Shown here piece by piece: positions 40,221 through 64,000 of a stretch of 64,000 nt of DNA (the stretch's first letter is position 1; every line of letters begins with the position of its first letter). A model generated the notes under the pieces. That model did no database searches. It was not told the origin of the DNA and saw only the letters and a list, made by a program, of their open reading frames with translations. The translations under genes were made by a program, and so were the position numbers. Source of the DNA: a virus. Its lineage: Duplodnaviria; Heunggongvirae; Uroviricota; Caudoviricetes. The DNA lies in the IMG/VR virus record IMGVR_UViG_3300035034_003552, one strand, 5' to 3'.

Positions 40221-40249
40221 TTGACAGCATTACATTTGAGTGTTATAAT
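40221..40249 (+). promoter_or_regulatory. Consensus sigma-A/sigma-70-type promoter (TTGACA-17-TATAAT) for the replication/recombination module.
   Basis: 'ttgaca' 40221-40226, 17-nt spacer, 'tataat' 40244-40249. The ORF-track entry 40221..41093 starts at this 'ttgaca' and is an artefact. Confidence 0.7.
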
Positions 40250-40325
40250 TAAGTTGCAGTTAAGAAAGAGGTACCGGCGTTACAGTATATTAAACGCTAT
40301 AAAAAATTATAAGGAGGTAACGCTG

Positions 40326-42200: not shown

Positions 42201-43209
42201 GTTTGGATGTCATCTGCCAAATGGGTATTTCAAGCGAGGACAATATATAACATCTGATGACTTACTGGATATGCGCAAGAAGTACAGTAATACAGGAATT
42301 TATACTACAATTTATAGATATTCTAAAGAATTAGAAGAAGAAGACCCCATTTACGGACCATTTTATTTGGACTTCGATGCTGATATGTGGGGCGTCAGCG
42401 ATGATGTAGCAGAAAAGAACTTAAAAAAAGTACAGGAAGACTTAAAACTAGCAATAACTTATTTTGAAGTCATATACAACATACCGAGGGAATATGCCAG
42501 ATGTTACTATTCAGGTAAAAAGGGGGTACATCTGGTTTACCCTGCTGATCTATTCGGGATTAAGCCGAGGGAAGACCTTAATAGAATATTTAAGCTTATA
42601 AAAGATGATGTAAGTAAATATGTCAATCACGACACGATAGATCAAAGAATATATGATAATAAAAGATTATTCAGAGTGCCAAACTCAAGGCACCAGGATA
42701 CAGGACTTTATAAGATACCGGCCAGTCCAGATTTTTTAATAAACAGCTCACTCAAGGAGATAAGAGATAAGGCAAAGATGCCACAGGAGCTTAAAGTTAA
42801 AGAACCCAGGACATTAAGAAAGCCGGCAAAACAGTACAGAGCAGTAGTTGATAAATATGAATACCAGAAAAAAGAGCGGGAAGAAAAGATGAAAAGGTAC
42901 AAAGATAAGCCGTTAAAACACACACCTCCATGTATCGATAACCTATTAGAAGACGGAGCACGAAAGGGCCACCGCAACAATTCGATGGCTGCACTAACAA
43001 GTTTTCTCAAACAGACTGGGTTAACCGAAGAAGAGGTATTCATGAAAATAAAGAAGTGGGGCAAAGAGAAATGTGTTCCACCAATTAATGAAAACGAGAT
43101 AAAAGCGACAGTCCCTTCAGTTTATGGAAGTGAAAAGAACTACGGATGTGCAGCACTAAAGGAACTATCGACTTGTGAAAAGGATAAATGCAAGCTGGTA
43201 AAAGATTAA
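42157..43209 (+). CDS. Archaeo-eukaryotic-primase-type primase-polymerase (PrimPol) with a C-terminal PriCT-1 domain.
   Basis: AEP motifs 'FYLDFD' (DxD), 'GKKGVHLVYP' (sGxGxH), 'RLFRVPNSRHQDTG'. The C-terminal 'GARKGHRNNSMAALTSFLKQTGLTEEEVF' fits PriCT-1 (GxRNxxLxxxA). ATG 42157 after 'aggaaggtg'. Confidence 0.7.
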   Translation: MKLSIAKDPQYSMIEFGCHLPNGYFKRGQYITSDDLLDMRKKYSNTGIYTTIYRYSKELEEEDPIYGPFYLDFDADMWGVSDDVAEKNLKKVQEDLKLAITYFEVIYNIPREYARCYYSGKKGVHLVYPADLFGIKPREDLNRIFKLIKDDVSKYVNHDTIDQRIYDNKRLFRVPNSRHQDTGLYKIPASPDFLINSSLKEIRDKAKMPQELKVKEPRTLRKPAKQYRAVVDKYEYQKKEREEKMKRYKDKPLKHTPPCIDNLLEDGARKGHRNNSMAALTSFLKQTGLTEEEVFMKIKKWGKEKCVPPINENEIKATVPSVYGSEKNYGCAALKELSTCEKDKCKLVKD

Positions 43210-44096
43210 AAAGGATTTTTGTCTTCTATTTCACGCTCAAGTATAGCATCAGTAACATGAGTATAGATCTCTGTTGTAGAGAGATTAGCGTGGCCAAGAA
43301 GTTTCTGTAAGTTTCTGATGTCCATACCGGCTGAGTGATACAGCGTAGCAAAGGTATGACGCAGGCTATGGCTTGATATGTCAGCGTTAAGGCCCATATT
43401 CTTTACCAGCTTTTTTACTATCCAATGGACAGTATGTCGACTGATTCTATTTTTCCTTTTAGAAATGAAGACAGCATCAAGTCTAGTCTTAGGTCTTTTT
43501 TCTAAATACTCTTTAAGTAGCTTGGCAATGTCTTTATTGAGAAAGATGGTACGCTCTTTAGAGCCCTTACCTAAAACTCGAATTACATTCTCATTAAGAC
43601 TCAAATCATTCATATTAAGACCAGTCAGTTCACTTACTCGAAGACCCGCCATGCTCATCAGGCCTATCATGGCCTTGTTTCTCGTATGAAACTCGGTGAA
43701 GGTTTCGTCAACGCCGTCCAAAATAAGCAAAAGCTGTCTCCTAGTAAGGAAGAGAGGTAACTTTTTGCCTCTAGGGGTATGGTAATCAATTTTTTCCATC
43801 GGGTTTGAGCCAATAAGGTCCTCATTGTAGAGGTAAATGAAGAAAGAGTTTAAGGAAGATACTTTCCTGGCCACTGTATAAGGGGAGTTTTCCCTTAGAT
43901 CAGTACAGTGAGAAAGAAAAGATCTAATATCATCCACTTCGAAGTTATCAAGTTTCTTATCAATATGTGATAAAAGGAGCTCGATATCTCGTAAATATTC
44001 TTCAATAGTGGAAGCACTTATATTCTTTTCAACTCTTAACCAGTTCTGCCAGTTGTTAATGATTTTCTTAGCTTCTTTCATGGAAGATTCCTCCAA
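43206..44096 (-). CDS. Xer-like tyrosine recombinase / integrase (XerC/XerD family, 296 aa).
   Basis: 'ARKVSSLNSFFIYLYNEDLIGSNP', 'GLRVSELTGLNMND', 'VLGKGSKERTIFL', 'HSLRHTFATLYHSAGMDIRNLQKLLGHANLSTTEIYTHV' (R...K...HxxR...Y catalytic set). No large N-terminal arm-binding domain. Confidence 0.85.
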   Translation of the reverse strand: MEESSMKEAKKIINNWQNWLRVEKNISASTIEEYLRDIELLLSHIDKKLDNFEVDDIRSFLSHCTDLRENSPYTVARKVSSLNSFFIYLYNEDLIGSNPMEKIDYHTPRGKKLPLFLTRRQLLLILDGVDETFTEFHTRNKAMIGLMSMAGLRVSELTGLNMNDLSLNENVIRVLGKGSKERTIFLNKDIAKLLKEYLEKRPKTRLDAVFISKRKNRISRHTVHWIVKKLVKNMGLNADISSHSLRHTFATLYHSAGMDIRNLQKLLGHANLSTTEIYTHVTDAILEREIEDKNPF

Positions 44097-49921: not shown

Positions 49922-50683
49922 ATGGAGTTTACCATAGAAGAGCTTAAAGTTTTTGGACAATGCCCACTTAAATATAAATACGGTTATATGAATGACTACA
50001 AATACAGAAAATCCAGAGAACAAGAATATGCAGACTCCATTAGGTCAGTCTCAACATGGTTTTTCGATAATGTAAGAACCGGCAGTATCCCCACCAAAAG
50101 AGAAATAAGAAAAAAGTGGGGGAGTATCTGGCATAAAGGCAAAGATGTTTACGATATCTTATTTGATACTTCTTATAAATATGAAAGGCGCCGCAATATA
50201 AAGGGAGTTGAAAAGATTGATAAATTTTACGATAGATTCACCAAAACACCGGGAACCATCTTAATAAATAATTACCCCTTCGATGTTCCAATAGGTAACG
50301 GCCACATATTAAAAGGTAGATTCGACATAATAAGAGAAGTAGAAAAAAACAATTCTACAAGAATTGAACTACTGAATTTAAGGACAGATAAATATGTTCC
50401 TTACAGTAGATTAAGGGAAAGGGATTTACTGCTTACTATACATGACTATGCATATAGGAAGACATTTGAACAGATCCCGGACCAACTAGCTTATTATGCC
50501 TTTAAGAATGATACAAGGGCCGTTATAGACCCTATGAGGCCGAAGCATTTTAAGAAGTTAGAGACTATGGTCAACAACATTGCATCTATTATAGATCAAG
50601 GTCTCTTCTTTCCTCGCTTCGATGAAGAACATAAAATATGCAGACACTGTGATTATACAACTGTCTGTGCGGGACGGAGGTGA
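49922..50683 (+). CDS. Cas4-like / RecB-family PD-(D/E)XK nuclease with a cysteine (Fe-S) cluster.
   Basis: SD 'aaaggag'. N-terminal 'ELKVFGQCPLKYKYGYM' (Cas4-type 'CPRK(F/Y)' box), 'GRFDIIREVEK' (D...ExK), C-terminal 'CRHCDYTTVCAG'. Confidence 0.65.
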   Translation: MEFTIEELKVFGQCPLKYKYGYMNDYKYRKSREQEYADSIRSVSTWFFDNVRTGSIPTKREIRKKWGSIWHKGKDVYDILFDTSYKYERRRNIKGVEKIDKFYDRFTKTPGTILINNYPFDVPIGNGHILKGRFDIIREVEKNNSTRIELLNLRTDKYVPYSRLRERDLLLTIHDYAYRKTFEQIPDQLAYYAFKNDTRAVIDPMRPKHFKKLETMVNNIASIIDQGLFFPRFDEEHKICRHCDYTTVCAGRR

Positions 50684-51417: not shown

Positions 51418-52212
51418 GTGATGGATACAGAAGAACAATTAACAGCAGATGAAGTAGAAGAACTAGTCAAAGATTACAAAGACCCAGAAAGCGATACTGA
51501 AGCCGCAAAGAAATTACTCAATGCATTTTACCCATATCATCAAAAGTTTATTAAGATAATCAAAAGAAGTACCTGCAATATTTCCGATGAAGACAGCAGA
51601 GAATTTATAGGATTATTTATAGAAGATAAAGAAACTAAAGATCAGTTCATAAAAAACTGGAACACTGGCTGGGCTAAGAAAGTAGGGACCAGCCGGGCCT
51701 CTTTTCTGACAGAGCTGTGTAAAAACATCTCATACGAGGAAATAAGCCAGGAATGCAAGCTAATAACTTTAAAGCTGGCAGACAGGTATGAAGATTTAAA
51801 CAGAAGTTTTTTAGCTTATATCAGCTCTTCTTTTAAATATGAGCTCAAAAGAAGCCTTGATGAATTGACTCAGGATCCACTTGTTATGATGCAAAACTAC
51901 AATATCCCTTATGATTATCACGAGATAGACAGCATGGAGGGTAGTAGTTACATAGTCAATGAGAACATGCAGTATGATGAAAATGCATTCACAATGAAAT
52001 ACGAGGAACTGGGTCCAGACTGGATAAGAGGGATCACCTGTTCAAGAGAATTTAAAGATTTAGACTTGGTAGAAAGAAAGATTATCAAGTACTACTATCT
52101 CGACGATCTTACCGATGAAGCAATCGGAAATGAAATAGGTTATTCAAGACAGTGGGCACATGAAATGAGACAGAGAACGATAAAAAAACTTAAAGAAAAA
52201 ATAGTAATGTAA
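51418..52212 (+). CDS. Phage-encoded sigma-70-family sigma factor.
   Basis: SD 'aaggagg'. C-terminal region-4 HTH 'RKIIKYYYLDDLTDEAIGNEIGYSRQWAHEMRQRTIKKLKEKI'. Confidence 0.65.
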   Translation: MMDTEEQLTADEVEELVKDYKDPESDTEAAKKLLNAFYPYHQKFIKIIKRSTCNISDEDSREFIGLFIEDKETKDQFIKNWNTGWAKKVGTSRASFLTELCKNISYEEISQECKLITLKLADRYEDLNRSFLAYISSSFKYELKRSLDELTQDPLVMMQNYNIPYDYHEIDSMEGSSYIVNENMQYDENAFTMKYEELGPDWIRGITCSREFKDLDLVERKIIKYYYLDDLTDEAIGNEIGYSRQWAHEMRQRTIKKLKEKIVM

Positions 52213-52294: not shown

Positions 52295-53005
52295 ATGGCA
52301 ACAGAACTCATAAAAGAATATATAGAAACTACTGATGGTGGATATGGTAAAGGTTACAGCTTAAAAGATCTTGTCAATTCACACCTTAGACAAAAACAAG
52401 TATTTTCAGAAAGAGATATGACAAAATTTCACCCCTCCTCCGTTGGTTATTGCGCAAGGAAAGTGGCAGCTGACATGATTGGTACATTTCCTAAAGAATT
52501 TATTGAGGACAGGATACTAAGAATATTCCAAAACGGCCACTATTCTCATGATAGAATACAGGATTGGCTTGAAGAAATGGGATTAATGGTTGAAGCAGAA
52601 AGAAAACTTATAGATGAAAGCTTAAACATAAGAGGTAACTGCGATGGTGTTATAGAGTTATATGATGAAGGTGAATTTATCATCGAAATCAAAACTATAA
52701 GTGCCAAAGGCTACAGGTACACTAAAAAGCCCAAGGACAAACACTACGCACAGATACAGCTTTACATGCATCTATCAGAGGTCCATAAAGGTATCCTCTT
52801 CTATGAATGCAAGGATGACCAGCGAATCAAAGAATTTAAGGTCGATTATGACCCAGAATTTGCACAGGAACTTATAGAAAAGATTAAGTTTATAAATAGT
52901 CATGTAGAGGAAGGTACTCTACCAGATAAACAATACGAGAAAAACAGCTTTGACTGCCGCTATTGTGAGTACAGAGAAACAATATGCTGGGCAGACGAAG
53001 ATTAA
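52295..53005 (+). CDS. Second Cas4-like PD-(D/E)XK nuclease with a Cys cluster.
   Basis: SD 'ggaaggaggg'. 'HPSSVGYCARKVA' (N-terminal Cys box), 'GNCDGVIELYDEGEFIIEIKT' (D...ExK), C-terminal 'CRYCEYRETICW'. Confidence 0.65.
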   Translation: MATELIKEYIETTDGGYGKGYSLKDLVNSHLRQKQVFSERDMTKFHPSSVGYCARKVAADMIGTFPKEFIEDRILRIFQNGHYSHDRIQDWLEEMGLMVEAERKLIDESLNIRGNCDGVIELYDEGEFIIEIKTISAKGYRYTKKPKDKHYAQIQLYMHLSEVHKGILFYECKDDQRIKEFKVDYDPEFAQELIEKIKFINSHVEEGTLPDKQYEKNSFDCRYCEYRETICWADED

Positions 53006-53370
53006 TTTAGTTAACCAAACTCCTTAAAATAAACCTCTAGAAATTGGTGACACAAAAGATTGATCAACTATTTAGCTTGTCAAATGTATATGTCACCTCT
53101 AAAAACTTGACCGGGTCCATAAAAGTGACTCCCTGTCGACAAGCACAGAGTCAGCCTGGTTTTTTGCCGAGAAGTTAATAAGACCCTTTAAAATCGAGGG
53201 CACTGTTCAGAGAACTATGAGGTTTCTAATCGGCTTAGTTTTTCCATGATAACAGGTGCGGATGTTCAACAGCCATTCGCACCACTCCTTAAATATAATA
53301 ATTTTCCTTTCTTCCGTCCCTGAAATATGGGGCGGTAATTTTATCCCAAAAATACACGAAAAGAGGTAAG

Positions 53371-53604
53371 ATGATGGCAAATAACAAAGATCAAACGTCT
53401 CTCAAGCTTATAGGTATGGCCACTAATATGTTTTCAGCAAATAAAGATGAAATAGAGGCATTTCTTTCAGCTTGGGATGAACATTTACATATATTTGAAG
53501 ATACAAAATCAGATAGAGGTAGAACTTTAAGTGACTTAATAGAAGATCTTAAAGAATATGCTGATGAAAAGTACAGTATAAGTTCTGTTATTAAAGAAGA
53601 GTAA
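53371..53604 (+). CDS. Hypothetical small protein.
   Basis: SD 'aagaggtaag'; 77 aa. Confidence 0.5.
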   Translation: MMANNKDQTSLKLIGMATNMFSANKDEIEAFLSAWDEHLHIFEDTKSDRGRTLSDLIEDLKEYADEKYSISSVIKEE

Positions 53605-53619
53605 AAAGGCGGTAGATAA

Positions 53620-53895
53620 ATGAATGTTAGACTCACGGTAAAAACAATATTCTCAGTATTAATAGCATACATGGTAGATATCTTCAATGAAGTCTATCCT
53701 ATTATAGGTAATTACATAGTTGGAGGACAGCTTGAGTCGTCAGATTTCAATTATTTACTTTTACAGTATTATAAAGAAGTGGATACTCTCTTCTATGCTC
53801 TTATAATTATGCTTTTAATCATGGTATGGTATCGAGAAATCAAGTATTTACATGACAACTATTGGGTGGCTGAAAAAGAAACAGCTACTGAATAA
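53620..53895 (+). CDS. Small two-TM membrane protein immediately upstream of the SPFH gene (possible NfeD-like partner).
   Basis: 'IFSVLIAYMVDIF' and 'LFYALIIMLLIMVWY' hydrophobic helices; 91 aa. Confidence 0.5.
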   Translation: MNVRLTVKTIFSVLIAYMVDIFNEVYPIIGNYIVGGQLESSDFNYLLLQYYKEVDTLFYALIIMLLIMVWYREIKYLHDNYWVAEKETATE

Positions 53896-53929
53896 CAAAT
53901 AATATATACAAAAGGGGTTGCATAAGTTA

Positions 53930-54973
53930 ATGAAGAAAAAGATTTTATTACTATCGATCATTTTATTAGTCGTACTATTCGCTACAACAGGTTGTGTCAT
54001 CAAGGAATACAAGGAACCATTGATTGTTGAGGGTGGCTCTAATGAAACACTTATTCTAATTCCAATGGTGGGGAACAATAAGGACACTCAGGAGAAATTA
54101 GATTCTCTTTCCTATCTTGAGGAAAACAAAGTAGCTTCAAAAAGAGTTGAATTAACTCAAGGCTGGCTTAAGAAAGGACGCCTACCTAACTCTGGGACAT
54201 ATATCCCCGACCAAAAAGCTATTAGAGTAGATAGAACTCCAGTAAACTTGGAGTGGACTGCAGAGAAAAATAGAGGCAGTAGCTCAAGCGATCAGGGTAT
54301 CGTCGGAGAAAGTAAGAACTCAATCAGTTTTGCGGTTGACTGGTATGTAACAGCAACAGTACTTGAAGAAAACGCACATGAATTCCTATATTGGTACGGT
54401 GTTAATAATGAAACTGCCAGAACAAAAGGCGGCAGAACCTACAGTGTAAAATCAAGACAGCTACATGATGTTGTTAATACTGAAGTAAGAAGGATGGTTG
54501 CCAAGCTCTTTACTGAAAAAACAGGACGGCTATCACTCGATGAAATAATGTCTGGTAAAGATAGGCTATCACAGGAAATTGAAAGCGAAGTTAAAGAACA
54601 TTTCGAGAAAAAAGGTATCACCATCACCGCTTCTGGATGGACTGGTGACATCACATATTTTGATGATGCAGTACAGGAATCAATTAACCAAGAATTTAAG
54701 GCTGACAGAAAGGCAAAGGCACAGGCTAAGGTAAATCAAATGAACTTAGATATGGCCAAAAACGAGGTTGAAGTGGCCAAGCAAGAAAGACTAGCCGCCG
54801 AGGAAAGACAGAAAGCCTGGGACATCATCGCACAGCGCAGAGAATTAGATATCTTAGAAAATTATGTAGATGTTCTTAATGAAAAATGGGATGGTAAGTA
54901 TCCTTCTACTCTCTTAAAGAATGGTGGAGGTTCTAATCAACCATTTATGATGGAACTACCAATGCCCGAATAA
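53930..54973 (+). CDS. SPFH/band-7 (stomatin/prohibitin/flotillin-like) lipoprotein.
   Basis: 'MKKKILLLSIILLVVLFATTGC' is a signal peptide with a lipobox-like TTGC. The mid-region 'RRMVAKLFTEKTGRLSLDEIMSGKDRLSQEIESEVKEHFEKKGITITASGWTGDITYFDDAVQESI', followed by the Ala/Glu/Lys coiled coil 'KAKAQAKVNQMNLDMAKNEVEVAKQERLAAEERQKA', is typical of SPFH domains. TTG at 53918 is an alternative start. Confidence 0.6.
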   Translation: MKKKILLLSIILLVVLFATTGCVIKEYKEPLIVEGGSNETLILIPMVGNNKDTQEKLDSLSYLEENKVASKRVELTQGWLKKGRLPNSGTYIPDQKAIRVDRTPVNLEWTAEKNRGSSSSDQGIVGESKNSISFAVDWYVTATVLEENAHEFLYWYGVNNETARTKGGRTYSVKSRQLHDVVNTEVRRMVAKLFTEKTGRLSLDEIMSGKDRLSQEIESEVKEHFEKKGITITASGWTGDITYFDDAVQESINQEFKADRKAKAQAKVNQMNLDMAKNEVEVAKQERLAAEERQKAWDIIAQRRELDILENYVDVLNEKWDGKYPSTLLKNGGGSNQPFMMELPMPE

Positions 54974-54986
54974 ATAGGAGGAATAT

Positions 54987-55244
54987 ATGGACTTTTCTAA
55001 AGCACTAAGTAAAGTGAAAGAAGGAAAGAAAATCGCAAGAAAAGGCTGGAACGGTAATGGTATGTATATTTATTTTGTCTCTGAAGATAGTTATGAGTCA
55101 AAAACTAAACATGCGAAGAAAGAATTTGGTGATGTAACACCTTATCTGCCATACCTTGCCCTAAAAACTGTTAATGACAAAGTAGTCCCATGGACCGTGA
55201 GTCAGACGGATATCTTATCTGATGATTGGACCGTGTTAGAATAA
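54987..55244 (+). CDS. DUF2829-like small protein (family of the Thoeris anti-defence protein Tad2).
   Basis: SD 'aggagg'. 'ALSKVKEGKKIARKGWNGNGMYIYF' and 'VVPWTVSQTDILSDDWTVLE' match the DUF2829 hallmarks (A(L/I)xxGKK(V/I)xRKGWNGKGM...W.PSQ.D(L/I)LA.DWE) from memory; 85 aa. Confidence 0.5.
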   Translation: MDFSKALSKVKEGKKIARKGWNGNGMYIYFVSEDSYESKTKHAKKEFGDVTPYLPYLALKTVNDKVVPWTVSQTDILSDDWTVLE

Positions 55245-55585: not shown

Positions 55586-55855
55586 GTGGAATTATTAGAA
55601 AACTTAAATATTAAAAATCTGTTCGAGACTAAAAAAGATGCTATTGAAAAATTCAACGATGTATTAGACCAAGACGAAATTCACTCTCAAATACGGGATA
55701 CTCTTGATAAGATAGAGAGTCAGATGCACAATAACATAATGGCACTTGAGGAGATCGAACAAAAAAAGAAAAAGCTTGAAGAGTATGAGAAAGAACTCAA
55801 TAAGAGAACTGATTCTTACAGAGATATGTACACAAAATTAGAAGAAATCATATAG
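55586..55855 (+). CDS. Small coiled-coil protein; GTG start.
   Basis: 89 aa, heptad-rich 'IMALEEIEQKKKKLEEYEKELNKRTD'. Confidence 0.45.
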   Translation: MELLENLNIKNLFETKKDAIEKFNDVLDQDEIHSQIRDTLDKIESQMHNNIMALEEIEQKKKKLEEYEKELNKRTDSYRDMYTKLEEII

Positions 55856-56237: not shown

Positions 56238-58628
56238 ATGCCAATAAACTATATAACTAAAAGAGATAAAGAGATAGTAGAATTTGACAGAGAAAAAATA
56301 GAGATTGCAGTAAATAATGCAGCCGTAGATGGTAATTTCGAGGAGAATCCCTTAGAACTGGGTATAAAGGTCGCAGATATAGTAGTACGAAAACTGCTTC
56401 CTGCTTATGAGGACAATACCAAAAACGATACTCCAACTGTGGAGCTTGTTCAAGATCTTATTGAGGAAACATTGATGGAACTAGGAAACTTCAAGATTGC
56501 TAAAAAGTATATTATATATAGAAGTAAAAGAGAAAGTGTTAGAATCAAGAAAAATAAAGAAGATGATAAAAACTCTATCCTTTCAAATGAATTCCTGAGC
56601 AAGTATAAACACCAGCCTAACCCTTTCCCAACAGAGCTGGGGGAATTTATTTATTATAGAACCTATTCGCGATGGTTGGAAGTAGAACAGCGCCGCGAGT
56701 ATTGGTGGGAAACAGTTAAAAGAGCTGTAGAATACAACTGCTCACTTGCACCAACAACTGAAGAAGAAGCTGAGGAATTATATGATAATGTATATAACTT
56801 AAGAAACTTTGTTGCCGGTCGTACATTATGGACAGCGAGTACAGAATCATCTAAAAAATACGGAATGAGTAACTACAATTGTTCCTTTACAGTTATAGAT
56901 AGCTTTAAGGCATACCAGGACATTTTCTACTTGCTTATGATAGGCAGCGGAACTGGATTTCGCGTTCTTCCTCGTGATGTTGATCATCTGCCTAAGATCA
57001 GAACTAATGTGGAAATTATTCATAAATATTATGACCCTATTGAGAAGGACGAGAGGCGTGAATATACCGACTTCGACTTTGATGGTAGAGTTGCTACTAT
57101 TAATGTTGGAGACTCAAAAGAGGGCTGGATTCAATCCCTAGAGTATTACTTTAAGTTCTTAACCGAACATTCTTATAGACCAGTAAGTAAAATCATCTTT
57201 AATTATGACTCCGTACGCCCGAAAGGCGAGAAACTTAAGACATTTGGTGGTACAGCTTCTGGCCATGGAAGTCTAAAGCGTATGTTTACTAAGGTTGATA
57301 AACTATTACACAGCAAAAGCGATAGAGATACAGACGATCTGGATAGAGTTAAGCTAAAGCCTATTGACGCAATGGATATTTCAAACATTATTGCTGAAAA
57401 TGTAGTTAGTGGTGGAGTAAGACGCTCCTCTCAAATTTGCCTCTTTTCTGCTGATGATAAAGAGATTGCCCAGGCTAAAAGCAAGTTATATGAGCAGGTA
57501 AATGGAGAATGGGTAATAGATGAAGAAATAGCACACCGTCAAATGAGTAATAACAGTATCTTTTACGAAGAAAAGCCAACCAGAGAACAACTTAAATGGC
57601 ATGTTGAGCAAATGCGTTTTAGCGGAGAACCGGGATTCATTAATGCAGAAGAAGGAAGGCGCCGCAGGGAAGATTTTAAAGGTGTAAATCCCTGTGCTGA
57701 GATTCTGTTAGATTCTAAGGGTGTATGTAACTTAACCTCCCTTAATGTAATGAGCTTTGTAGAAGACGGTGAGCTTGATAGAGAAGCCATGATGAACTCA
57801 CAAAGATTATCTGCTAGAGCCGGTTATAGGATGGCCACAATAGAGTTTGAACTGCCAGAATGGGGTTACATCAATGACAGAGATAGACTAATTGGGCTAT
57901 CAGTTACTGGGTGGCAGGATATGGTGAATGCTGCTGACTTAGATAAAGATGAAGAAGCACAACTATTAAGACAGCTAAAAAATGCTGGCCAGGATGCTGC
58001 AGAAGAAATAGCGGCAGAATTAGATGGTAACGAACCTAAGCTAGTCACTACCGTTAAGCCAGAAGGCACTCAGACACAAATGCCTACGGTATCAAGCGGA
58101 CTCCATTATAACCATAGTGCATATTATTTAAGAAGAGTTAGAATTTCTGCTTCTGATCCGCTGGCCCGGGTGTGTGAAGAATTGGATTATCCAGTACACC
58201 CTGAAACCGGTCAGGATCCTGACAATCCAGAAACACTAGTCATAGAATTCCCAGTACGCGCTCCAGAAGGCAAAGTCAAGGATGACGTTGGAGCCCTAGA
58301 ACAGTTAGAAACCTACAAGATGTTTATGAAAAACTATGTTGATCATAATGCTTCGATCACTGTTCATGTCAAGGATGACGAATGGGAAGATGTAGAAGAA
58401 TGGTTATGGGAAAACTGGGAATATACAGTTGGTATCTCCTTTCTTTCTTATAATGACAGCTTCTATGAACTAATGCCTTATGAGGAAATTACCGAAGAAG
58501 AATACTTAGATAGAGCAGAAAAAATGAAAGAGTTTAAGCCCGGTCTAGTTGCTAAGTATGAAACTGAACAGCTTGAGAGAGAGGTTGAGGGTAGTTCCTG
58601 TGAGACTGGAGCCTGTCCGATCAGATAA
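56238..58628 (+). CDS. nrdJ: Ribonucleotide reductase, class II (adenosylcobalamin-dependent, NrdJ-type), with an N-terminal ATP-cone-like region.
   Basis: SD 'aagggag'. N-terminal 'ITKRDKEIVEFDREKIEIAVNNAAVDG' (ATP-cone-like), 'NPCAEILLDSKGVCNLTSLNV' (class II active-site Cys/Asn motif NPCxEIxL...CNLxSxN), C-terminal 'SSCETGACPI' redox Cys pair; 796 aa. Confidence 0.8.
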   Translation: MPINYITKRDKEIVEFDREKIEIAVNNAAVDGNFEENPLELGIKVADIVVRKLLPAYEDNTKNDTPTVELVQDLIEETLMELGNFKIAKKYIIYRSKRESVRIKKNKEDDKNSILSNEFLSKYKHQPNPFPTELGEFIYYRTYSRWLEVEQRREYWWETVKRAVEYNCSLAPTTEEEAEELYDNVYNLRNFVAGRTLWTASTESSKKYGMSNYNCSFTVIDSFKAYQDIFYLLMIGSGTGFRVLPRDVDHLPKIRTNVEIIHKYYDPIEKDERREYTDFDFDGRVATINVGDSKEGWIQSLEYYFKFLTEHSYRPVSKIIFNYDSVRPKGEKLKTFGGTASGHGSLKRMFTKVDKLLHSKSDRDTDDLDRVKLKPIDAMDISNIIAENVVSGGVRRSSQICLFSADDKEIAQAKSKLYEQVNGEWVIDEEIAHRQMSNNSIFYEEKPTREQLKWHVEQMRFSGEPGFINAEEGRRRREDFKGVNPCAEILLDSKGVCNLTSLNVMSFVEDGELDREAMMNSQRLSARAGYRMATIEFELPEWGYINDRDRLIGLSVTGWQDMVNAADLDKDEEAQLLRQLKNAGQDAAEEIAAELDGNEPKLVTTVKPEGTQTQMPTVSSGLHYNHSAYYLRRVRISASDPLARVCEELDYPVHPETGQDPDNPETLVIEFPVRAPEGKVKDDVGALEQLETYKMFMKNYVDHNASITVHVKDDEWEDVEEWLWENWEYTVGISFLSYNDSFYELMPYEEITEEEYLDRAEKMKEFKPGLVAKYETEQLEREVEGSSCETGACPIR

Positions 58629-58801
58629 TGTTTAAACTAACAGATAATAAAGAGCTCCTTGAAGCACTAAGAAAGGGCTTTAAAAACAAAGGTGGGTATT
58701 GTCCCTGTAAATTAGAAAAGACAGATGATAATATCTGCCCCTGTACTGAGTTTATAGAGACCGGTAAATGTCACTGCGGATTATTTGTAGAAGTTGAATA
58801 A
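58628..58801 (+). CDS. Ferredoxin-thioredoxin-reductase-catalytic-subunit-like miniprotein (57 aa, CPC/CPC/CHC), translationally coupled to nrdJ.
   Basis: ATG overlaps the nrdJ stop (TAATG). 'MFKLTDNKELLEALRKGFKNKGGYCPCKLEKTDDNICPCTEFIETGKCHCGLFVEVE' carries the CPC-x-CPC-x-CHCxLF arrangement characteristic of FTR catalytic chains. Not in the ORF track (<60 aa). Confidence 0.5.
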   Translation: MFKLTDNKELLEALRKGFKNKGGYCPCKLEKTDDNICPCTEFIETGKCHCGLFVEVE

Positions 58802-58807
58802 TAACTT

Positions 58808-58836
58808 AGACCCCTCAAAAGGGGTCTTTTTTTTTG
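58808..58836 (+). terminator. Strong rho-independent terminator ending the plus-strand module.
   Basis: 'agacccctcaaaaggggtct' followed by T9. Confidence 0.8.
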
Positions 58837-58848
58837 CCCATAATAAAA

Positions 58849-58878
58849 GGCCGCCCGAAAATGAAAAATAGGGCGGCC
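58849..58878 (-). terminator. Terminator for the convergent minus-strand gene block.
   Basis: 'ggccgccc...gggcggcc' 8-bp GC stem. On the minus strand it is followed by 'ttttattatggg'. Confidence 0.55.
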
Positions 58879-58906
58879 ACAGTTTTATCTATATTCTGTT
58901 ATTTTT

Positions 58907-59233
58907 CTAATCTAGGTCGATAATTGATTCTACCCCATACTGCTCTAAAAGATTGAATAAATCTGGATAGTCTTCTTTCATCTTATCCTTCTCAATTTCA
59001 GTAATAGATTCTCCACATACAGGACACCTTTCTGTCTCTTCATATTCTTCAGACTTTAAAATATTAAGCAGTTCTAGATAGGCGTCATCCTTGGTTTTTT
59101 CATACTCCAGTAAATCTGTCATACCTTCTTTCTCAGCGTGTTTAAGTACTTTCTTAGAATCAGTAAATAGGTTAAATTCATCAGTTCTTCTAATCTTAAT
59201 GAGATCTACTATAGCTTTCTCTTTGTTAGTCAT
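58907..59233 (-). CDS. Hypothetical acidic protein with a CxxC motif.
   Basis: 108 aa; 'RCPVCGESI'. Confidence 0.55.
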   Translation of the reverse strand: MTNKEKAIVDLIKIRRTDEFNLFTDSKKVLKHAEKEGMTDLLEYEKTKDDAYLELLNILKSEEYEETERCPVCGESITEIEKDKMKEDYPDLFNLLEQYGVESIIDLD

Positions 59234-59514
59234 TAGAATCCCCCTTCAATATTTTCTTGCCCTACTACGTCAAGATACTTAAAAATTAAGGAGCCACTAT
59301 CTATTAAGTTCTCTTTAACTGGTCCATTAATCCAGCTTTCTTTAACTACTGCTAAATTAGAGGCACTAAAAAGAGCTTTACCAATACATAAATACCTTCC
59401 GTTAGGTCTTTTTTTTAGTACTACAATGTCTTCTCTATGCCTGAAGGTAAGCCCTCTTGGTCTATTTTTAGAACCTATAAATTCAACAACATCTCCTAAT
59501 TTATAATTACTCAT
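59233..59514 (-). CDS. Hypothetical protein.
   Basis: 93 aa; ATGA overlap with the downstream gene. Confidence 0.55.
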   Translation of the reverse strand: MSNYKLGDVVEFIGSKNRPRGLTFRHREDIVVLKKRPNGRYLCIGKALFSASNLAVVKESWINGPVKENLIDSGSLIFKYLDVVGQENIEGGF

Positions 59515-59656
59515 CAGTTTTAGCAGGTTCGGTCATCTTCCAAAAAGTTTCTGGAGTAACTGTTACGGCTCTTTCCTCGCTTGTGCTGTCATTTCTTAAA
59601 TTTATTGTCACATTAACACCATCAAAATTAAAACCAACAATACTATATGGACTCAT
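59507..59656 (-). CDS. Small (49 aa) hypothetical ORF.
   Basis: Minus-strand SD 'aaggagatataaat' + ATG at 59656; 8-nt overlap with the next gene; below the ORF-track cutoff. Confidence 0.35.
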   Translation of the reverse strand: MSPYSIVGFNFDGVNVTINLRNDSTSEERAVTVTPETFWKMTEPAKTDE

Positions 59657-59690
59657 ATTTATATCTCCTTTGGAATATATTTAGTTACTG

Positions 59691-60074
59691 TTATCTGTCC
59701 TGATCCATCGCATTTTGGACAGTATTTTCATTTTTAGTCACAGTCATAAACTTATCTATTATATAATCAATTGCGTCTTCTTTTTCTGTAAATATTATAT
59801 AACTTTTCATATTTTCAGCCTCCAATTCATAAAAACCACCATAACCATTTTCTTTTTCACCTGTTTTGTGATTATACCAATCCCAGAAATTAGAAACACC
59901 ATGCTCTCCCCAGTACTGGCCGCCTTTAATAGTTATCCTGTTCCCATTACTGAGTTGATAGTCTTCTCCAATTACTACATCTTCACCATATATGCGTTTT
60001 GGGTCTGAAGTGGCTTCTGTTGCGTCTCTGACCATTTTTTTTATATCATTACTTACCATCTTCGTCGCCTCCAA
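59691..60074 (-). CDS. Hypothetical protein.
   Basis: 127 aa; minus-strand SD 'ggaggcgacgaag' precedes the ATG. Confidence 0.55.
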   Translation of the reverse strand: MEATKMVSNDIKKMVRDATEATSDPKRIYGEDVVIGEDYQLSNGNRITIKGGQYWGEHGVSNFWDWYNHKTGEKENGYGGFYELEAENMKSYIIFTEKEDAIDYIIDKFMTVTKNENTVQNAMDQDR

Positions 60075-60353
60075 ATATTAAAAGCCTGAAAAAGTTTATA
60101 ACTACTGCAGCTACGAATATTATTCCTAAAAGTTGCAAATGATCACTCCTCCAGTTTTTCTTTAAAAGTATTATAACCATCTTGCCATGCTTGTCCTGGA
60201 GTTTCAGCCCATGATACACCAGTAATAGGTTTTACCTGGTATGACGGCAGGTTCGTTTGGTTTAACGTGAACATCTATTTTAACATCTTTAAATTCGATA
60301 GTAATCACCCCATTAGAAAACTCCGCACATATTAGTATCTGCGGATATTATTT

Positions 60354-60746
60354 TCACTCTCCATATATTTCTTTTATAGATATCTTTAACATCTGAATAG
60401 CTTCTTTAAATATAGGATCATATTTTTTCTTCTGCTCCTTGTAGTAATCTCTACCAGTAGGTGTTATTCTATAAAACTTCTTACTATTTACCATTTCGTC
60501 TTCTTTATAATAACTTAAGTAACCCTGGTTGGCCAATCTTTTAAGTATCGGGTATACACTACCTGAGGAAGGGCTCCAGTCCGATACTTCTTCAAATTCT
60601 TGCTCCATCCACTCCATCATCTCTGCTCCGTACATTTCTGCCTTACGATTAACCAAATAATGAAGTATAAAGAGTCTAATGAGTCCAGAAGTACTTATCT
60701 TTGCCGGCTGCAACAGAAATCTGTTGTAAGTATTCCTATTAGTCAT
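60354..60746 (-). CDS. PadR-family transcriptional regulator.
   Basis: 'LIRLFILHYLVNRKAEMYGAEMMEWMEQEFEEVSDWSPSSGSVYPILKRLANQGYL' matches the PadR winged-helix consensus (...GYEI...xxxxGxLYPxLxRLExxGxL). Confidence 0.7.
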   Translation of the reverse strand: MTNRNTYNRFLLQPAKISTSGLIRLFILHYLVNRKAEMYGAEMMEWMEQEFEEVSDWSPSSGSVYPILKRLANQGYLSYYKEDEMVNSKKFYRITPTGRDYYKEQKKKYDPIFKEAIQMLKISIKEIYGE

Positions 60747-60760
60747 TTTAAATCCCCCTT

Positions 60761-61738
60761 TTACCAGTCTAACCTTGAAGTGAATACTAATTCATTTGTA
60801 CCTTTTCTAAAATTAGCTTCAAAGTTGCCAAAATAATTGGCGAGAAATTTACCGGTTTCTCCTGTATTCATATCTACATAGTACATACCGTAATATCTAT
60901 CCAGATCTTCTCTGGGATCTACCTGTTGATACTGGAAAAGTCTTGATACTATGAAGTAAGAACCGGTCTTATTGAAGCCGTTAGGTACAAGATATTTATC
61001 GTCCTCATATATGACCTTATTTACATGTAAATCATCAACTTCTAGTTTATCATAAGGCTCTATAAAGAACAATGGTTTGGCTATCTTGGCCATTGCCATT
61101 TGGCCATCGGGGGAAACTATCCCATCTCTTGCATAAACTCCTGTCTCCTTAATTTCTTGAGTATCTGGATCATATGTCATTAACTCTAACTCTCTTTTTT
61201 CTAGTCTGACTTCTGTTAAGATCAGCTTGTCTAAATTACTGTCATAAGATGTTGGATAAACTCTTCTTTCAGACAATAACTTAGGAATACCAAAATTATC
61301 TTCCTTCTCTAAAACATAAAGCTCTCTTATATGCCTATACCAGTAGTGTCTTAAATTATTATTAACCTGCGTAAGACCAGTTATATATAGTTTTTCACTA
61401 TCATCTGACCATACTGGCTTTACTCCCCAGTTTATTTCGGCTATTATCTTACCATCTCTTTTAAACTCCTGGACAGTAAGTGTAGGCCCTTTCTTTACAT
61501 AAGCGATATAGTTACCATCTGGTGATATAGCACCCATTCTGGCATCTTTGACAAACCCTGAGTAGGATGGATAACCCGCCATAGTCTTGAAAAACTCGTC
61601 TTCATTCATTGTCCATAGGTTAGTACCGCTTGGCCAGGTCCCTGGAACTTGATTTATTGGAGCTTCTTCTGCAAACCCTGTAACTGACATTAATAGAATC
61701 ATAAAAAATAAAATAGTAAGTCTAAAATTTCTTTTCAT
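60761..61738 (-). CDS. Secreted beta-propeller protein with PD40/TolB-like repeats.
   Basis: Signal peptide 'MKRNFRLTILFFMILLMSVTGFAEEA'. Repeats 'AISPDGNYIAYV', 'GIVSPDGQMAMAKI' (sPDGxxIAF PD40 motif); 325 aa. Confidence 0.6.
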   Translation of the reverse strand: MKRNFRLTILFFMILLMSVTGFAEEAPINQVPGTWPSGTNLWTMNEDEFFKTMAGYPSYSGFVKDARMGAISPDGNYIAYVKKGPTLTVQEFKRDGKIIAEINWGVKPVWSDDSEKLYITGLTQVNNNLRHYWYRHIRELYVLEKEDNFGIPKLLSERRVYPTSYDSNLDKLILTEVRLEKRELELMTYDPDTQEIKETGVYARDGIVSPDGQMAMAKIAKPLFFIEPYDKLEVDDLHVNKVIYEDDKYLVPNGFNKTGSYFIVSRLFQYQQVDPREDLDRYYGMYYVDMNTGETGKFLANYFGNFEANFRKGTNELVFTSRLDW

Positions 61739-61769
61739 AAGTAACTACCCCCTGTTTTTGTGTATCAAG

Positions 61770-61784
61770 CTCGATAATGTCGAG
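61770..61784. promoter_or_regulatory. Perfect 5-5-5 palindrome (CTCGA-TAATG-TCGAG) in the promoter region of the secreted-protein/PadR operon; candidate operator.
   Basis: Read directly. It lies about 30 nt upstream of the minus-strand gene start, next to 'ttgaaa'/'ttgata' -35-like hexamers. Confidence 0.3.
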
Positions 61785-61839
61785 TGTGATACTACTATTT
61801 TCAAGACAGAAGGTTTATATCCTTCATTTTTTTATAAAT

Positions 61840-62160
61840 TTATGCAGATTTTTTTACAACTGTCTCTCGATTAAGACGGGAGAAGAGCTGATCTTCGTTT
61901 TTTAAATCCGCTATGTGAGCCCTATATTCGAGTTCTGAGGGCATTTTCTTTTTGGTAGACAAGTAATCGTGTGCGTAATCTAAAGCCGTATACATCTCGT
62001 CTAGTAGGACATAATGTGGTTTGTTCTCCTCTGTGTATTCTTCCATACATTCCCTGCTGTCTATATAACCATCTCTATCATGTAGATCATAAACATTCTG
62101 GTTGGGATAAATTGGGCGGCCACAGTGGACACAATCATCTATAGGTACTTGGTTTCTCAT
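61840..62160 (-). CDS. Hypothetical Cys/His-containing small protein.
   Basis: 106 aa; 'CVHCGRPIYPNQNVYDLHDRDGYIDSREC'. Confidence 0.55.
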   Translation of the reverse strand: MRNQVPIDDCVHCGRPIYPNQNVYDLHDRDGYIDSRECMEEYTEENKPHYVLLDEMYTALDYAHDYLSTKKKMPSELEYRAHIADLKNEDQLFSRLNRETVVKKSA

Positions 62161-62171
62161 ATCATTTCCTC

Positions 62172-62627
62172 CTATTTTATCTTTTTGGCTACGGCATAAG
62201 CATCCTCGAATGTATCGTAATTGTCTACAGTACCGTATATATATTTATTGTTTTCTTTTCTGATAGGTCTCTCTACAACAAAAAACGGGTCATGAAAGAG
62301 GATTTTATTCTTTCCAACCTCTAAAGCGCCTTCTTTTAGATTCTTAAACTCATAAGCACTCATCTTAATATAGTTTAATGGAATATTATTTATCTCATAT
62401 CTCAAAAAGAATTCCTGCTCATTTAGGATATAATAAAAAGAAAACCAGCCAAAGATAACAAATAGTACGGTTTTAATAATGTGTATCCTATAAAGGGCAA
62501 CAAAAGCCCCTTCATCTCTTTTCATAGAGGAATAAGTTTTATATACTCTTAGTATCATAAACCCACACCCCATAGAGTAGAGTGTTAAGTATCCGATTAA
62601 AAAATCACTCAATTTATCCACCTCCAA
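62172..62627 (-). CDS. Membrane protein (2 TM) with a C-terminal domain paralogous to that of the adjacent HTH protein.
   Basis: 'FLIGYLTLYSMGCGFMIL', 'IIKTVLFVIFGWFSFYYIL'. The C-terminal 'EFKNLKEGALEVGKNKILFHDPFFVVERPI...YDTFEDAYAVAKKI' aligns with the 62644 C-terminus. Confidence 0.6.
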   Translation of the reverse strand: MEVDKLSDFLIGYLTLYSMGCGFMILRVYKTYSSMKRDEGAFVALYRIHIIKTVLFVIFGWFSFYYILNEQEFFLRYEINNIPLNYIKMSAYEFKNLKEGALEVGKNKILFHDPFFVVERPIRKENNKYIYGTVDNYDTFEDAYAVAKKIK

Positions 62628-62643
62628 TAAAAAAGACTGCTAA

Positions 62644-63171
62644 TTAAATAACCTTAGCAGTCTCTATAGCGTCTTCAAATATATGATAACCTTCATGTGT
62701 TTCATATATATCCACTTCTTTTCTGACTATGCCTTCATCTGTTGATTCGATTCCTTTTTCTACGGTTTCTATATATCTATCAACAACAAAGTATGACTTA
62801 TCACCAGATATTTCATATCTTATTCTATTTTTACCTACTAGAAAAATTCCATCAACTAATTTCTTAAAATTCTCAGCATAATTAAGACTTGGGATTATGG
62901 GTTGATCATCCATAAAATGATTGGGCAAATAACCTGCAGCAACCATCAAATCTATATATTCTAAGCAGGAGTTCTTTGAAATCTGCAACAAGGTCTTTGG
63001 GTTTGGCGGTGTATCTTTCCTGGTATTCATTAATTTTGAGATATAAGTTCTATCAACACCGACCTCATCACAAAACTTTGTTGCAGTTTCGTAATTATCA
63101 ACAGCCTCTTCTAACATTTCTTTTAACATCTCTGGTTTAAACTGAAAGTTTTCAGGTTCCAATAAGATCAC
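62644..63171 (-). CDS. XRE-type helix-turn-helix regulator with a C-terminal domain shared with the 62172 membrane protein.
   Basis: 'ATKFCDEVGVDRTYISKLMNTRKDTPPNPKTLLQISKNSCLEY' (HTH). 'NFKKLVDGIFLVGKNRIRYEISGDKSYFVVDRYI...YETHEGYHIFEDAIETAKVI'. Confidence 0.6.
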   Translation of the reverse strand: MILLEPENFQFKPEMLKEMLEEAVDNYETATKFCDEVGVDRTYISKLMNTRKDTPPNPKTLLQISKNSCLEYIDLMVAAGYLPNHFMDDQPIIPSLNYAENFKKLVDGIFLVGKNRIRYEISGDKSYFVVDRYIETVEKGIESTDEGIVRKEVDIYETHEGYHIFEDAIETAKVI

Positions 63172-63401
63172 ATTCCTTCTTTATATTTTCTCAATATCTT
63201 CAGCATAAATTCCTCTACTGCTTAAAAGTTTAAGTTCTGACATTATAAATTCTTCCGTACTGTCATATCCATATATCTCTTTTTTCTCATTTTATTTTCC
63301 CCACTTATGCTCTGTTAGCCTTCTTGACGCTCCTCGGGGCAAGCCCACAAGGTTTTCTAGTCCCTAACTTCTATAACACCCTTTCTAACCTTAAAATTAA
63401 T

Positions 63402-63563
63402 TTAATCTATCAATACTTCTTCAACCTCTCTTTTATCTACTGCACTAGCAACATTTTTTAAATCCTGAGATAATAAATCAAACTCTTCTTCTGTCATTTC
63501 CCTCTCACAAAACTCATGAGCTCTAGTAAAAAATGTCTGTAATTTCTGTTCTAATTCTCTCAT
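63402..63563 (-). CDS. Small (53 aa) acidic hypothetical protein. The ORF-track version 63402..63656 probably starts too far upstream.
   Basis: Minus-strand 'aggagagataat' + ATG at 63563, preceded by a consensus promoter. Confidence 0.45.
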   Translation of the reverse strand: MRELEQKLQTFFTRAHEFCEREMTEEEFDLLSQDLKNVASAVDKREVEEVLID

Positions 63564-63627
63564 ATTATCTCTCCTAATTAGTTTTTTTTGTGGCGCTTTT
63601 TTCTTTGTTTTCTGTCTCACTGTTACC

Positions 63628-63656
63628 AGTATAGCACTTATATTATACCATGTCAA
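63628..63656 (-). promoter_or_regulatory. Consensus promoter on the minus strand (TTGACA-17-TATACT).
   Basis: Minus-strand 'ttgacatggtataatataagtgctatact' (plus 63628-63656). Confidence 0.55.
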
Positions 63657-63694
63657 GTAAAATTTAAAATTAATTTATTTTATTTTATTTTTTA

Positions 63695-63737
63695 TCAGGC
63701 CTCTTTTACAAGGCCTGATTTTTTTAATTATTTTTTG
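63695..63737. terminator. Hairpin 'caggcctcttttacaaggcctg' flanked by A/T tracts; bidirectional terminator-like element downstream of the 63728 gene.
   Basis: 7-bp stem. T7 follows on the plus strand and an A-run precedes it on the minus-strand reading. Confidence 0.45.
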
Positions 63738-63994
63738 TCAATATCAATTATATAATCTTTGTTATCTAATACATTCAAAACGAATCTCAAATTATTTTTT
63801 GAGTTATTAACTTCAGTCGCGTAAAAGTCATTACCTTGCTTTAGAATTTCAATGATACTTTCAGCTGTTACATTGCCTCTTTTTTTCTTTTCTGTAAGTG
63901 CTTCGCACTTCTCTATTATCATCCACTTTTCTTGTCTTTTTTCTCTTTTATTCTCCTCAACAAGTTTAATTAATTCTTTTCTTTTAATCATCAA
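63728..63994 (-). CDS. Hypothetical basic/acidic small protein.
   Basis: 88 aa; the start is at the window edge (TTG/ATG). Confidence 0.45.
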   Translation of the reverse strand: MMIKRKELIKLVEENKREKRQEKWMIIEKCEALTEKKKRGNVTAESIIEILKQGNDFYATEVNNSKNNLRFVLNVLDNKDYIIDIDKK

Positions 63995-64000
63995 AAACCA

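Follow-up and report, generated by a model that had tools for sequence, protein, structure and literature searches.

A Tad2-family sponge and a split SPFH membrane module, probably separate in function, share a short putative transcription unit in a large phage genome

We have analyzed a compact group of genes in a 64,000-nucleotide stretch of viral DNA (Caudoviricetes; IMG/VR record IMGVR_UViG_3300035034_003552); this whole stretch is referred to below as the window. Four closely packed open reading frames (ORFs) lie on the + strand at 53371-53604, 53620-53895, 53918/53930-54973 and 54987-55244. The last three, which encode a small two-helix membrane protein, an SPFH/Band-7 protein and a protein of the Tad2 family (DUF2829), had been picked out in an initial annotation made from the sequence, and all three are present in the order and at the coordinates given there, apart from the start of the SPFH gene, which we shift to the ATG at 53930. 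That annotation took them for a compact anti-defence or exclusion island. Our analysis points rather to a Tad2 sponge and a two-part membrane module that are probably separate in function and share a transcription unit. The features of the unit are as follows.

53314..53335, + strand: terminator-like hairpin (7-bp stem with 6 GC pairs, then a T-rich tail), the likely upstream border of the unit
53371..53604, + strand: acidic 77-aa ORF, first in the unit, identified by the ORF call and a good Shine-Dalgarno sequence (AAGAGGT)
53620..53895, + strand: 91-aa two-helix membrane protein, the SPFH "partner", with two hydrophobic segments and homologues that adjoin SPFH genes
53911..53917, + strand: Shine-Dalgarno sequence AAAGGGG for the ATG at 53930
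53930..54973, + strand: predicted SPFH/Band-7 lipoprotein of 347 aa, identified by Pfam Band_7, phrog_200, a lipobox, AlphaFold2 and Foldseek
54987..55244, + strand: 85-aa Tad2-family (DUF2829) protein, with a strong Shine-Dalgarno sequence (AGGAGG) and a match to Pfam PF11195
55256..55277, + strand: intrinsic-terminator-like hairpin (8-bp stem, then TCTTTTTATT), 12 nt past the Tad2 stop codon, the downstream border

Since the two + strand hairpins bracket the ORFs, the four genes look like one transcription unit, and co-transcription of all of them, the 77-aa ORF included, is likely. Terminator-like sites are over-represented in this region (10 observed in a consensus scan, 1.5 expected). The 77-aa ORF has no match in Pfam, PHROG, PADLOC or NCBIfam, and tblastn finds no counterpart in the related loci, so that it is not conserved in relatives. 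None of the five proteins of the region matches a PADLOC defence model at E<=0.1, and NCBIfam returned nothing meaningful for them. The unit is preceded by an unusually long non-coding gap of 365 bp (53006-53370), which contains several stable hairpins, one of them followed by a U-run near 53127-53168; its fold z-score is -2.2 and it has no Rfam match.

The assignment of the 85-aa protein to the Tad2 family, and by homology its identity as a genuine ligand-binding sponge, is well supported. Residues 1-83 align with positions 1-72 of the 73 in the Pfam Tad2-like profile (PF11195) with E=4.9e-26 (91.5 bits, cutoff 25), and both motifs on which the DUF2829 assignment was originally based, RKGWNG and W.VSQ.DILSDDW, are present. 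Matches to solved Tad2 structures corroborate the assignment: MoTad2 (PDB 8V3E/9EIB) is found with E~1e-25 and 50% identity over 84 residues with zero gaps, SPO1 Tad2 (8SME) with E=4.6e-13 and 32% identity, HgmTad2/AcrIIA7 (8KBI) with E=3.5e-13, and SptTad2 (8WJD) with E=2e-11. When the protein is aligned to these, the residues of the ADP-ribose pocket (W21, N22, W69, S72, T74 and D75) are all there. SPO1 Tad2 holds 3' cyclic ADP-ribose (3'cADPR) by W25, N26, W73 and D79, with further contacts from T78, I63 and T65 and water-mediated ones from D67, H71 and S76 (bioRxiv 10.1101/2023.05.01.538930). The corresponding positions here are, in the same order, W21, N22, W69, D75, T74, L59, T61, N63, V67 and S72; seven of the ten are identical, one is a conservative replacement and two are changed (D67 to N63 and H71 to V67). 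Binding of glycocyclic ADP-ribose (gcADPR) by HgmTad2 is abolished in the mutants W21A/N22A and S90A/T92A/D93A (PMC10680739), and all five of these binding residues (W21, N22, S90, T92, D93) are kept in the 85-aa protein. The sponge assignment thus passes the check set in the initial annotation, for which loss of the ligand-binding residues would have been refuting.

Which signal is bound is less easily predicted. The initial annotation implied a classical Thoeris target, and this is uncertain: MoTad2, the closest characterised homologue, does not inhibit type I Thoeris and binds histidine-ADP-ribose (His-ADPR), the signal of type II Thoeris (bioRxiv 10.1101/2024.01.03.573942). MoTad2 also binds 2'cADPR (bioRxiv 10.64898/2025.12.03.692087), and its second pocket takes the cyclic mononucleotides cUMP and cCMP (PMC12393519). 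In SPO1 Tad2 this second pocket is blocked by F44 (bioRxiv 10.1101/2024.01.03.573942); the equivalent residue is T40 in the 85-aa protein and likewise T in MoTad2, and the second pocket of the window protein is probably open. The candidate signals would be 3'cADPR, His-ADPR, 2'cADPR or cUMP/cCMP. Tad2 homologues are common, with 380 phage records matched here and 2,783 homologues reported from IMG/VR (PMC12393519).

The SPFH gene was called mechanically from a TTG at 53918 (53918-54973, 351 aa). Because the Shine-Dalgarno sequence AAAGGGG touches this TTG but sits 12 nt ahead of the ATG at 53930, the ATG is most likely the true start, which gives a protein of 347 aa beginning MKKKILLL. It matches Pfam Band_7 (PF01145) with E=1.9e-10 (41.5 bits, cutoff 23.6) and phrog_200, "lipoprotein", with E=4.9e-21. 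The signal peptide ends in a Gram-positive lipobox pattern (G+LPP), MKKKILLLSIILLVVLFATTG-C22, with the lipobox FATTG-C22 in the 347-aa numbering, and the pattern recurs in 11 of 14 close homologues as well as in phage G gp65 and a fecal phage protein. The protein is thus predicted to be lipid-anchored at Cys22, in agreement with its initial description as a lipoprotein. A lipobox after a signal peptide would place the SPFH domain outside the cytoplasmic membrane, which is also where it lies in HflK/C, prohibitin and erlin.

An AlphaFold2 monomer model, computed from an alignment with 14 homologues, has a mean predicted local distance difference test (pLDDT) score of 76, with 85-96 in the core. 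The model consists of an anchor helix, a beta-rich N-domain with the SPFH alpha/beta core (~31-243), one helix of 74 residues (246-319) and a low-confidence tail. The SPFH core and the Ala/Glu/Lys coiled coil proposed from the sequence are both recovered, the latter as helix 246-319, in which A, E, K, Q and R make up 55% of residues. The top Foldseek matches in the PDB are prohibitin, stomatin, erlin, HflK/C, flotillin and QmcA-YbbJ, with E values from 2e-9 to 1e-6 and a probability of 1.00 over ~300 columns, at an identity of just 9-14%. The C-terminal tail (KWDGKYP...QPFMMELPMP) is conserved through Stenotrophomonas phage DLP_6 and bacterial homologues. Exact-sequence look-up of the protein with either the TTG or the ATG start found no record, and scanning IMG/VR with the one sequence turned up no close relative, although an alignment-based scan of IMG/VR did yield loci; the close relatives (52-88% identity) come from metagenomes only.

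The 91-aa protein encoded directly upstream has the two transmembrane segments first ascribed to it, separated by a 32-residue loop and followed by a 20-residue tail. It has no Pfam match at E<=1 and none in PHROGs, NCBIfam or PADLOC, and ten diverse members of its family likewise match no Pfam family at E<=1. On these sequence comparisons the partner is a member of an undescribed family of two-helix membrane proteins of ~85 aa. The family motifs are a conserved acidic extracytoplasmic loop (GNYIVGGQLESSD) and W-x-x-EIK after the second transmembrane segment. Among 48 family members the density of K+R is 0.36 and 0.28 in the tails and 0.05 in the net-acidic loop; by the positive-inside rule this bias suggests that both termini lie inside and the conserved loop outside, on the same side as the SPFH domain. 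The gene pair had been compared with NfeD-SPFH operons. A small protein linked to an SPFH protein is indeed what we find, but NfeD identity is rejected, since there is no Pfam match and two helices with a 32-residue loop leave no room for an OB-fold; the likeness is one of analogy only.

With HMMER, a search through all of 1.84 billion representatives identified 109 partner proteins at E<=1e-3, all of them cluster representatives, 73-143 aa in length and covering nearly the full profile. Three were looked up, and two of these lie directly upstream of a Band_7 gene, one of them in an NCBI assembly beside purL. The weakest match tested (P0100) does not adjoin an SPFH gene, so the low-scoring tail of the 109 is not reliable throughout. 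A metagenome contig of 629 bp from the European Nucleotide Archive (P0015) encodes a protein 100% identical to the 91-aa partner, so that the same or a near-identical phage has been sampled elsewhere.

The association of partner and SPFH protein extends well beyond the window. A homologous ORF of 80-88 aa lies directly upstream of the SPFH gene in each close-relative context fetched (L001, L003/L004, L005 and L006), and partner homologues also adjoin SPFH genes in L013 and L014. The gene pair gp64/gp65 of Bacillus phage G is the same pair: gp64 reaches 25.8 bits with the partner profile, where 500 shuffles reach 11.0 at most. A scan of IMG/VR and of one genome per species with the SPFH alignment found 17 loci in viruses and 35 in bacteria (Planctomycetota, Patescibacteria, Massilia, Chloroflexota, Clostridia, Fuchsiella and others). 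Over a survey base of 58 non-redundant SPFH loci from phages and bacteria, a partner-like element is found in ~46, against a background of 8 in 298 (2.7%) for other genes of >=200 aa within the surveyed loci. The element takes several forms. In 20 of the 58 loci a match to the partner profile adjoins the SPFH gene, and in a further 12 a small neighbouring ORF has two or more hydrophobic helices and no profile match; in 5 the partner profile matches an N-terminal extension of the SPFH ORF itself, and 9 have long SPFH forms with three N-terminal hydrophobic segments. Some of these are matches of architecture only: neither a 74-aa ORF of a fecal phage (L008) nor the extension of P0011 scores above shuffled sequences against the partner profile. 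In five viral and bacterial loci (L019, L021, L024, L037 and L051) the partner-like ORF lies directly downstream of the SPFH gene, so that adjacency is kept and order is not.

The fused form is abundant, with >488 proteins, many of them encoded on Planctomycetota chromosomes. Alignment of the free partner with the fused extension by hhalign gives 81% and E=1.2e-5 with the order of elements kept (first transmembrane segment, Q-L loop, second transmembrane segment, E-I-K), and an AlphaFold2 model of the natural fusion P0012 has a confident helical hairpin (helices 2-38 and 43-78, pLDDT 72-89) ahead of the anchor helix. An internal G-C lipobox is invariant in 87 aligned fused sequences (P0012 and 86 homologues; G96-C97 of P0012). 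In these mostly planctomycetal proteins, represented by loci L046, L048, L052, L053 and L065, the G-C follows the third hydrophobic segment, ~97-130 residues in. Judging by this motif, signal peptidase II could cleave the fused precursor into the two parts that the phages encode separately. Bacterial copies occur in ordinary chromosomal contexts, beside purL or purM/purN, and no third gene family recurs near the module across the surveyed loci. Adjacency or fusion in ~46 of 58 loci, as against 2.7%, indicates that partner and SPFH protein form one module.

The Tad2 gene behaves differently. It follows the SPFH gene directly in the window and in L003/L004, and after an extra 57-aa ORF in L006, whereas it is not beside the module in L001 or L005, nor within 5 kb on either side of it in any of another 52 loci, viral and bacterial. 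Directly after the SPFH gene of L005 comes a homologue of the 89-aa ORF found at 55586-55855 in the window, and the ribonucleotide reductase (RNR) gene lies beyond it; the Tad2 gene thus appears to have been inserted in the lineage of the window. The order of genes around the pair varies as well: RNR precedes the pair in L006 and follows it in the window, and TK, ThyA and DHFR precede it in L003. Phage G also encodes a Tad2-like protein, gp59 (JN638751 40613-40885; L007 330-599), which is 36% identical to the window protein and lies five genes, ~2.3 kb, upstream of gp64/gp65. From these comparisons we conclude that partner and SPFH protein are the conserved unit, and that Tad2 would be a variable accessory gene in a shared promoter-terminator interval. 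A compact three-gene island, as first proposed, does not hold up against this pattern: Tad2 is beside the module only in the closest relatives, is 2.3 kb off in phage G and is found near it in 0 of the 52 further loci.

The remainder of the window is that of a large phage. Nearly all genes between 1 and 58.6 kb lie on the + strand, and G+C content is ~36%. The structural proteins belong to rare PHROG families; an 832-aa virion protein shares 28-32% identity with proteins of jumbo myoviruses of ~220 kb, Bacillus phage vB_BauM_KLEB27-3 and 0305phi8-36, and with one of Moorella phage MTATph1. The nearest SPFH protein from an isolate phage is gp65 of Bacillus phage G, and a 198-kb contig from a metagenome carries a relative of the SPFH gene. 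By megablast, 5 kb of the sequence matched none of 50,697 phage records, and no near-identical phage is present in GenBank. The kinship of the virion protein with jumbo Bacillus and Moorella phages, together with the SPFH match to phage G, leads us to read the host as a probable member of the Bacillota, and the source as a large phage, probably jumbo-type, that has not been isolated. No tRNAs were found in the window, and an Rfam scan of 50-64 kb gave no match.

The neighbours of the unit include a sigma-70 region-4 protein, RNR, a candidate RuvC-like gene recognised from its translation, and two separate nucleases:

49922-50683 and 52295-53005, just upstream of the unit: two PD-(D/E)XK/Cas4-like nucleases with C-terminal Cys clusters

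These nucleases flank the RuvC-like gene and the sigma-70 region-4 protein (51418-52212). Further upstream, a tyrosine recombinase/integrase is encoded on the - strand at 43206-44096 (Phage_integrase, E=1e-45) within a + strand replication block that also has a Rad52-like protein (40221-41093) and a fused primase of the archaeo-eukaryotic type (42151-43209). At ~58.6 kb, right after the RNR gene, gene orientation and GC/AT skew change sign (window 58600-64000), which we take as the border of divergent transcription blocks. The RNR of L005 (5039-8245) is longer than that of the window, 1068 aa against 796 aa, and has faint Pfam matches to Hint/intein; tblastn cuts the L005 match into three pieces, consistent with at least one intein insertion that the window RNR does not have.

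The interpretation that we favour, and hold to be probable, is that a Tad2 sponge and a split partner/SPFH module, functionally separate, share one short transcription unit of a jumbo-type phage with a probable Bacillota host. The Tad2 protein would, by homology, form a homotetramer with inter-subunit pockets, to which one chain contributes W21/N22 and another W69/S72/T74/D75. These pockets would sequester an alarm molecule of the ADP-ribose type derived from a TIR protein, so that the host effector is never switched on, and the second pocket may, like that of MoTad2, hold cyclic pyrimidine mononucleotides. The genes for the 91-aa and 347-aa proteins would encode, in split form, a two-part membrane module that is widespread. 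Its SPFH protein would be exported and anchored by a lipid at Cys22 to the outer leaflet of the cytoplasmic membrane. Its architecture and its conserved C-terminal W-DGK-P tail lead us to infer that it may oligomerise through its long helix and this tail into a ring or cage like that of HflK/C or prohibitin, with the partner inside or beneath the cage and its acidic outside loop presumably touching the SPFH domains. A role in infection is likewise inferred from the arrangement: the likeliest use of the module would be to keep part of the host membrane partitioned or stable through a long infection. Such membrane partitioning or stabilisation, with superinfection exclusion as one possible outcome, is our preferred guess as to what the phage gains.

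Several observations weigh against this interpretation or parts of it. Twelve of the 58 SPFH loci have no detectable partner-like element; DLP_6, which is counted among them, has an annotated two-helix ORF of 67 aa 2 bp upstream. The homologues P0006-P0008 lack the lipobox Cys. All AlphaFold2 models are of monomers, and what is said of ligands, oligomers and contacts derives from homology and architecture. That Tad2 occurs close to the module both in the window clade and in phage G, lineages very distant from each other, hints at a non-random association, and in a weak sense keeps a Tad2-module link alive. Where MoTad2 has S-V-S-D as its pocket motif, the window protein has S72-Q-T74-D75, and N63/V67 replace D67/H71 of SPO1, so that ligand specificity is not transferable from either protein. 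Phage SPFH lipoproteins have, in addition, been recorded at the level of annotation with no role assigned (PMC1524935, PMC10892097, PMC13239085).

The most obvious alternative is the one first proposed, a single counter-defence or exclusion island in which Tad2 clears the signal while a partner/SPFH cage shields the membrane from effectors, corrals them or blocks superinfecting DNA. The likely co-transcription between bracketing hairpins would suit it, as would the position of Tad2 after SPFH in the window, L003/L004 and L006 and the nearness of gp59 (2.3 kb) to gp64/gp65 in the distant phage G. Pycsar, one of the targets of MoTad2, uses membrane-spanning effectors, and some known phage exclusion proteins, T5 Llp and TP-J34 Ltp, are lipoproteins, as the SPFH protein is predicted to be. 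Type II Thoeris, likewise a MoTad2 target, also acts through membrane-spanning effectors (bioRxiv 10.1101/2024.01.03.573942). The island is nonetheless unlikely, since the module occurs without Tad2 in L001, L005 and the 52 further loci, sits in ordinary bacterial contexts beside purL or purM/purN, and is set in a gene order that is not constant; the PADLOC models add no match, and the SPFH domain is predicted to be extracytoplasmic. A more specific layered counter-defence, with an outer-face cage that confines or neutralises the membrane effectors of TIR or Pycsar signals, or seals the membrane, while Tad2 acts on the signal, seems to us very unlikely; if true, it would provide the first function for the widespread phage SPFH lipoproteins.

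Other alternatives concern single members of the unit. That partner and SPFH protein act as an HflK/C-like regulator, caging a host membrane protease (FtsH or similar) and so stabilising phage proteins or altering proteolysis, is suggested by the HflK/C-FtsH complexes among the Foldseek matches (7vhq, 7wi3, 9cz2), which have the same anchor-out topology, and by the generic Joint Genome Institute label "regulator of protease activity HflC" on fused homologues. Prohibitin, stomatin and erlin score equally, however, which points to the architecture of the superfamily and not to HflK/C specifically; with 11-14% identity to HflK/C and no protease gene that recurs near the module, we consider this quite unlikely. 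The 91-aa protein might also be a class II-like holin or antiholin whose timing of lysis is tuned by the SPFH lipoprotein. Its small size, two hydrophobic helices and charged C-terminal tail are those of a holin, and SPFH would be at the membrane, but there is no holin match in PHROG or Pfam and no adjacent endolysin, the neighbours being genes of DNA and nucleotide metabolism (nucleases, sigma-like factor, RNR). The family is moreover kept in bacterial chromosomes, often fused to SPFH, which is a misfit for a lysis gene; the holin reading is highly improbable and was rejected on gene context and bacterial conservation. An anti-CRISPR role for the DUF2829 protein, following the original AcrIIA7 proposal, would draw on the homology to AcrIIA7/HgmTad2 (E=3.5e-13) and on one Klebsiella phage homologue that carries the label "anti-CRISPR protein". 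It is scarcely credible, given that Cas9 inhibition was not reproduced, either in vitro or in vivo, for HgmTad2 and other Tad2 homologues, which bind gcADPR and cyclic dinucleotides (PMC10680739), and that the closer homologue MoTad2 is a demonstrated sponge.

On this evidence the phage SPFH lipoproteins that have been noted for twenty years are one half of a conserved two-part system. The other half is a family of small membrane proteins, so far unannotated, which takes the place of NfeD and is often fused to SPFH. The module offers a concrete unit for the study of what would be an SPFH assembly of a new type, located outside the bacterial membrane on its outer face. The window Tad2 gene adds another member to a well-known family with thousands of homologues, but its mixture of a MoTad2-like whole and an S-Q-T-D motif like that of SPO1 and HgmTad2 makes it a useful test case for sponge specificity. 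Adjacency in phage accessory regions must be interpreted with caution, as it need not mean a functional island.

Among known Tad2 proteins, MoTad2/ModTad2 of a Myroides odoratus prophage resembles the window protein in its PF11195 domain, its length (88 aa and 85 aa, respectively) and the conserved W-N, W and D pocket residues. It differs at position 63, which is D there and N here; its activities were shown by experiment, whereas the window protein is known from sequence; and its host phylum is probably Bacteroidota, as against Bacillota here. SPO1 Tad2 (gp34.65) and HgmTad2/AcrIIA7 share the fold family and the identical S-Q-T-D motif, and W21/N22 match the HgmTad2 numbering. The window protein departs from SPO1 Tad2 at D67 (N), H71 (V) and F44 (T), and from HgmTad2 in missing the long beta2-beta5 insertion that binds cyclic dinucleotides.

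On the side of the membrane module, the phage lipoproteins of the phrog_200 type are of the same SPFH/Band-7 kind. They include 44RR ORF098c, Aeh1 ORF064c and RB43 ORF139c from T4-like phages, gp200 of the Vi01-like phage Sajous1, a protein of the Schitovirus GIB1, and phage G gp65. The last of these is 35% identical to the window SPFH protein and has the same partner (gp64), and in Stenotrophomonas phage DLP_6 both the layout and the C-terminal motif, EKWDGKLP, recur. The papers that record phage SPFH lipoproteins (PMC1524935, PMC10892097, PMC13239085) mention neither the partner gene nor fused forms. With the SPFH-NfeD operons (E. coli QmcA-YbbJ, 8Z5G) and HflK/C the module shares an SPFH protein that is anchored to the membrane and has a long coiled-coil helix and the predicted fold of the cage formers. 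It further shares with the former an SPFH gene beside one for a small membrane protein, and with the latter an SPFH domain on the non-cytoplasmic side. The arrangement would thus be analogous to the SPFH-NfeD or HflK/C-FtsH assemblies. It differs from them in that the SPFH protein is predicted to be anchored by lipid and not by a transmembrane helix, at 11-14% identity, in that the partner lacks an NfeD/OB-fold domain and shows no detectable kinship with NfeD, and in that partner and SPFH protein are here often joined in one fused polypeptide.

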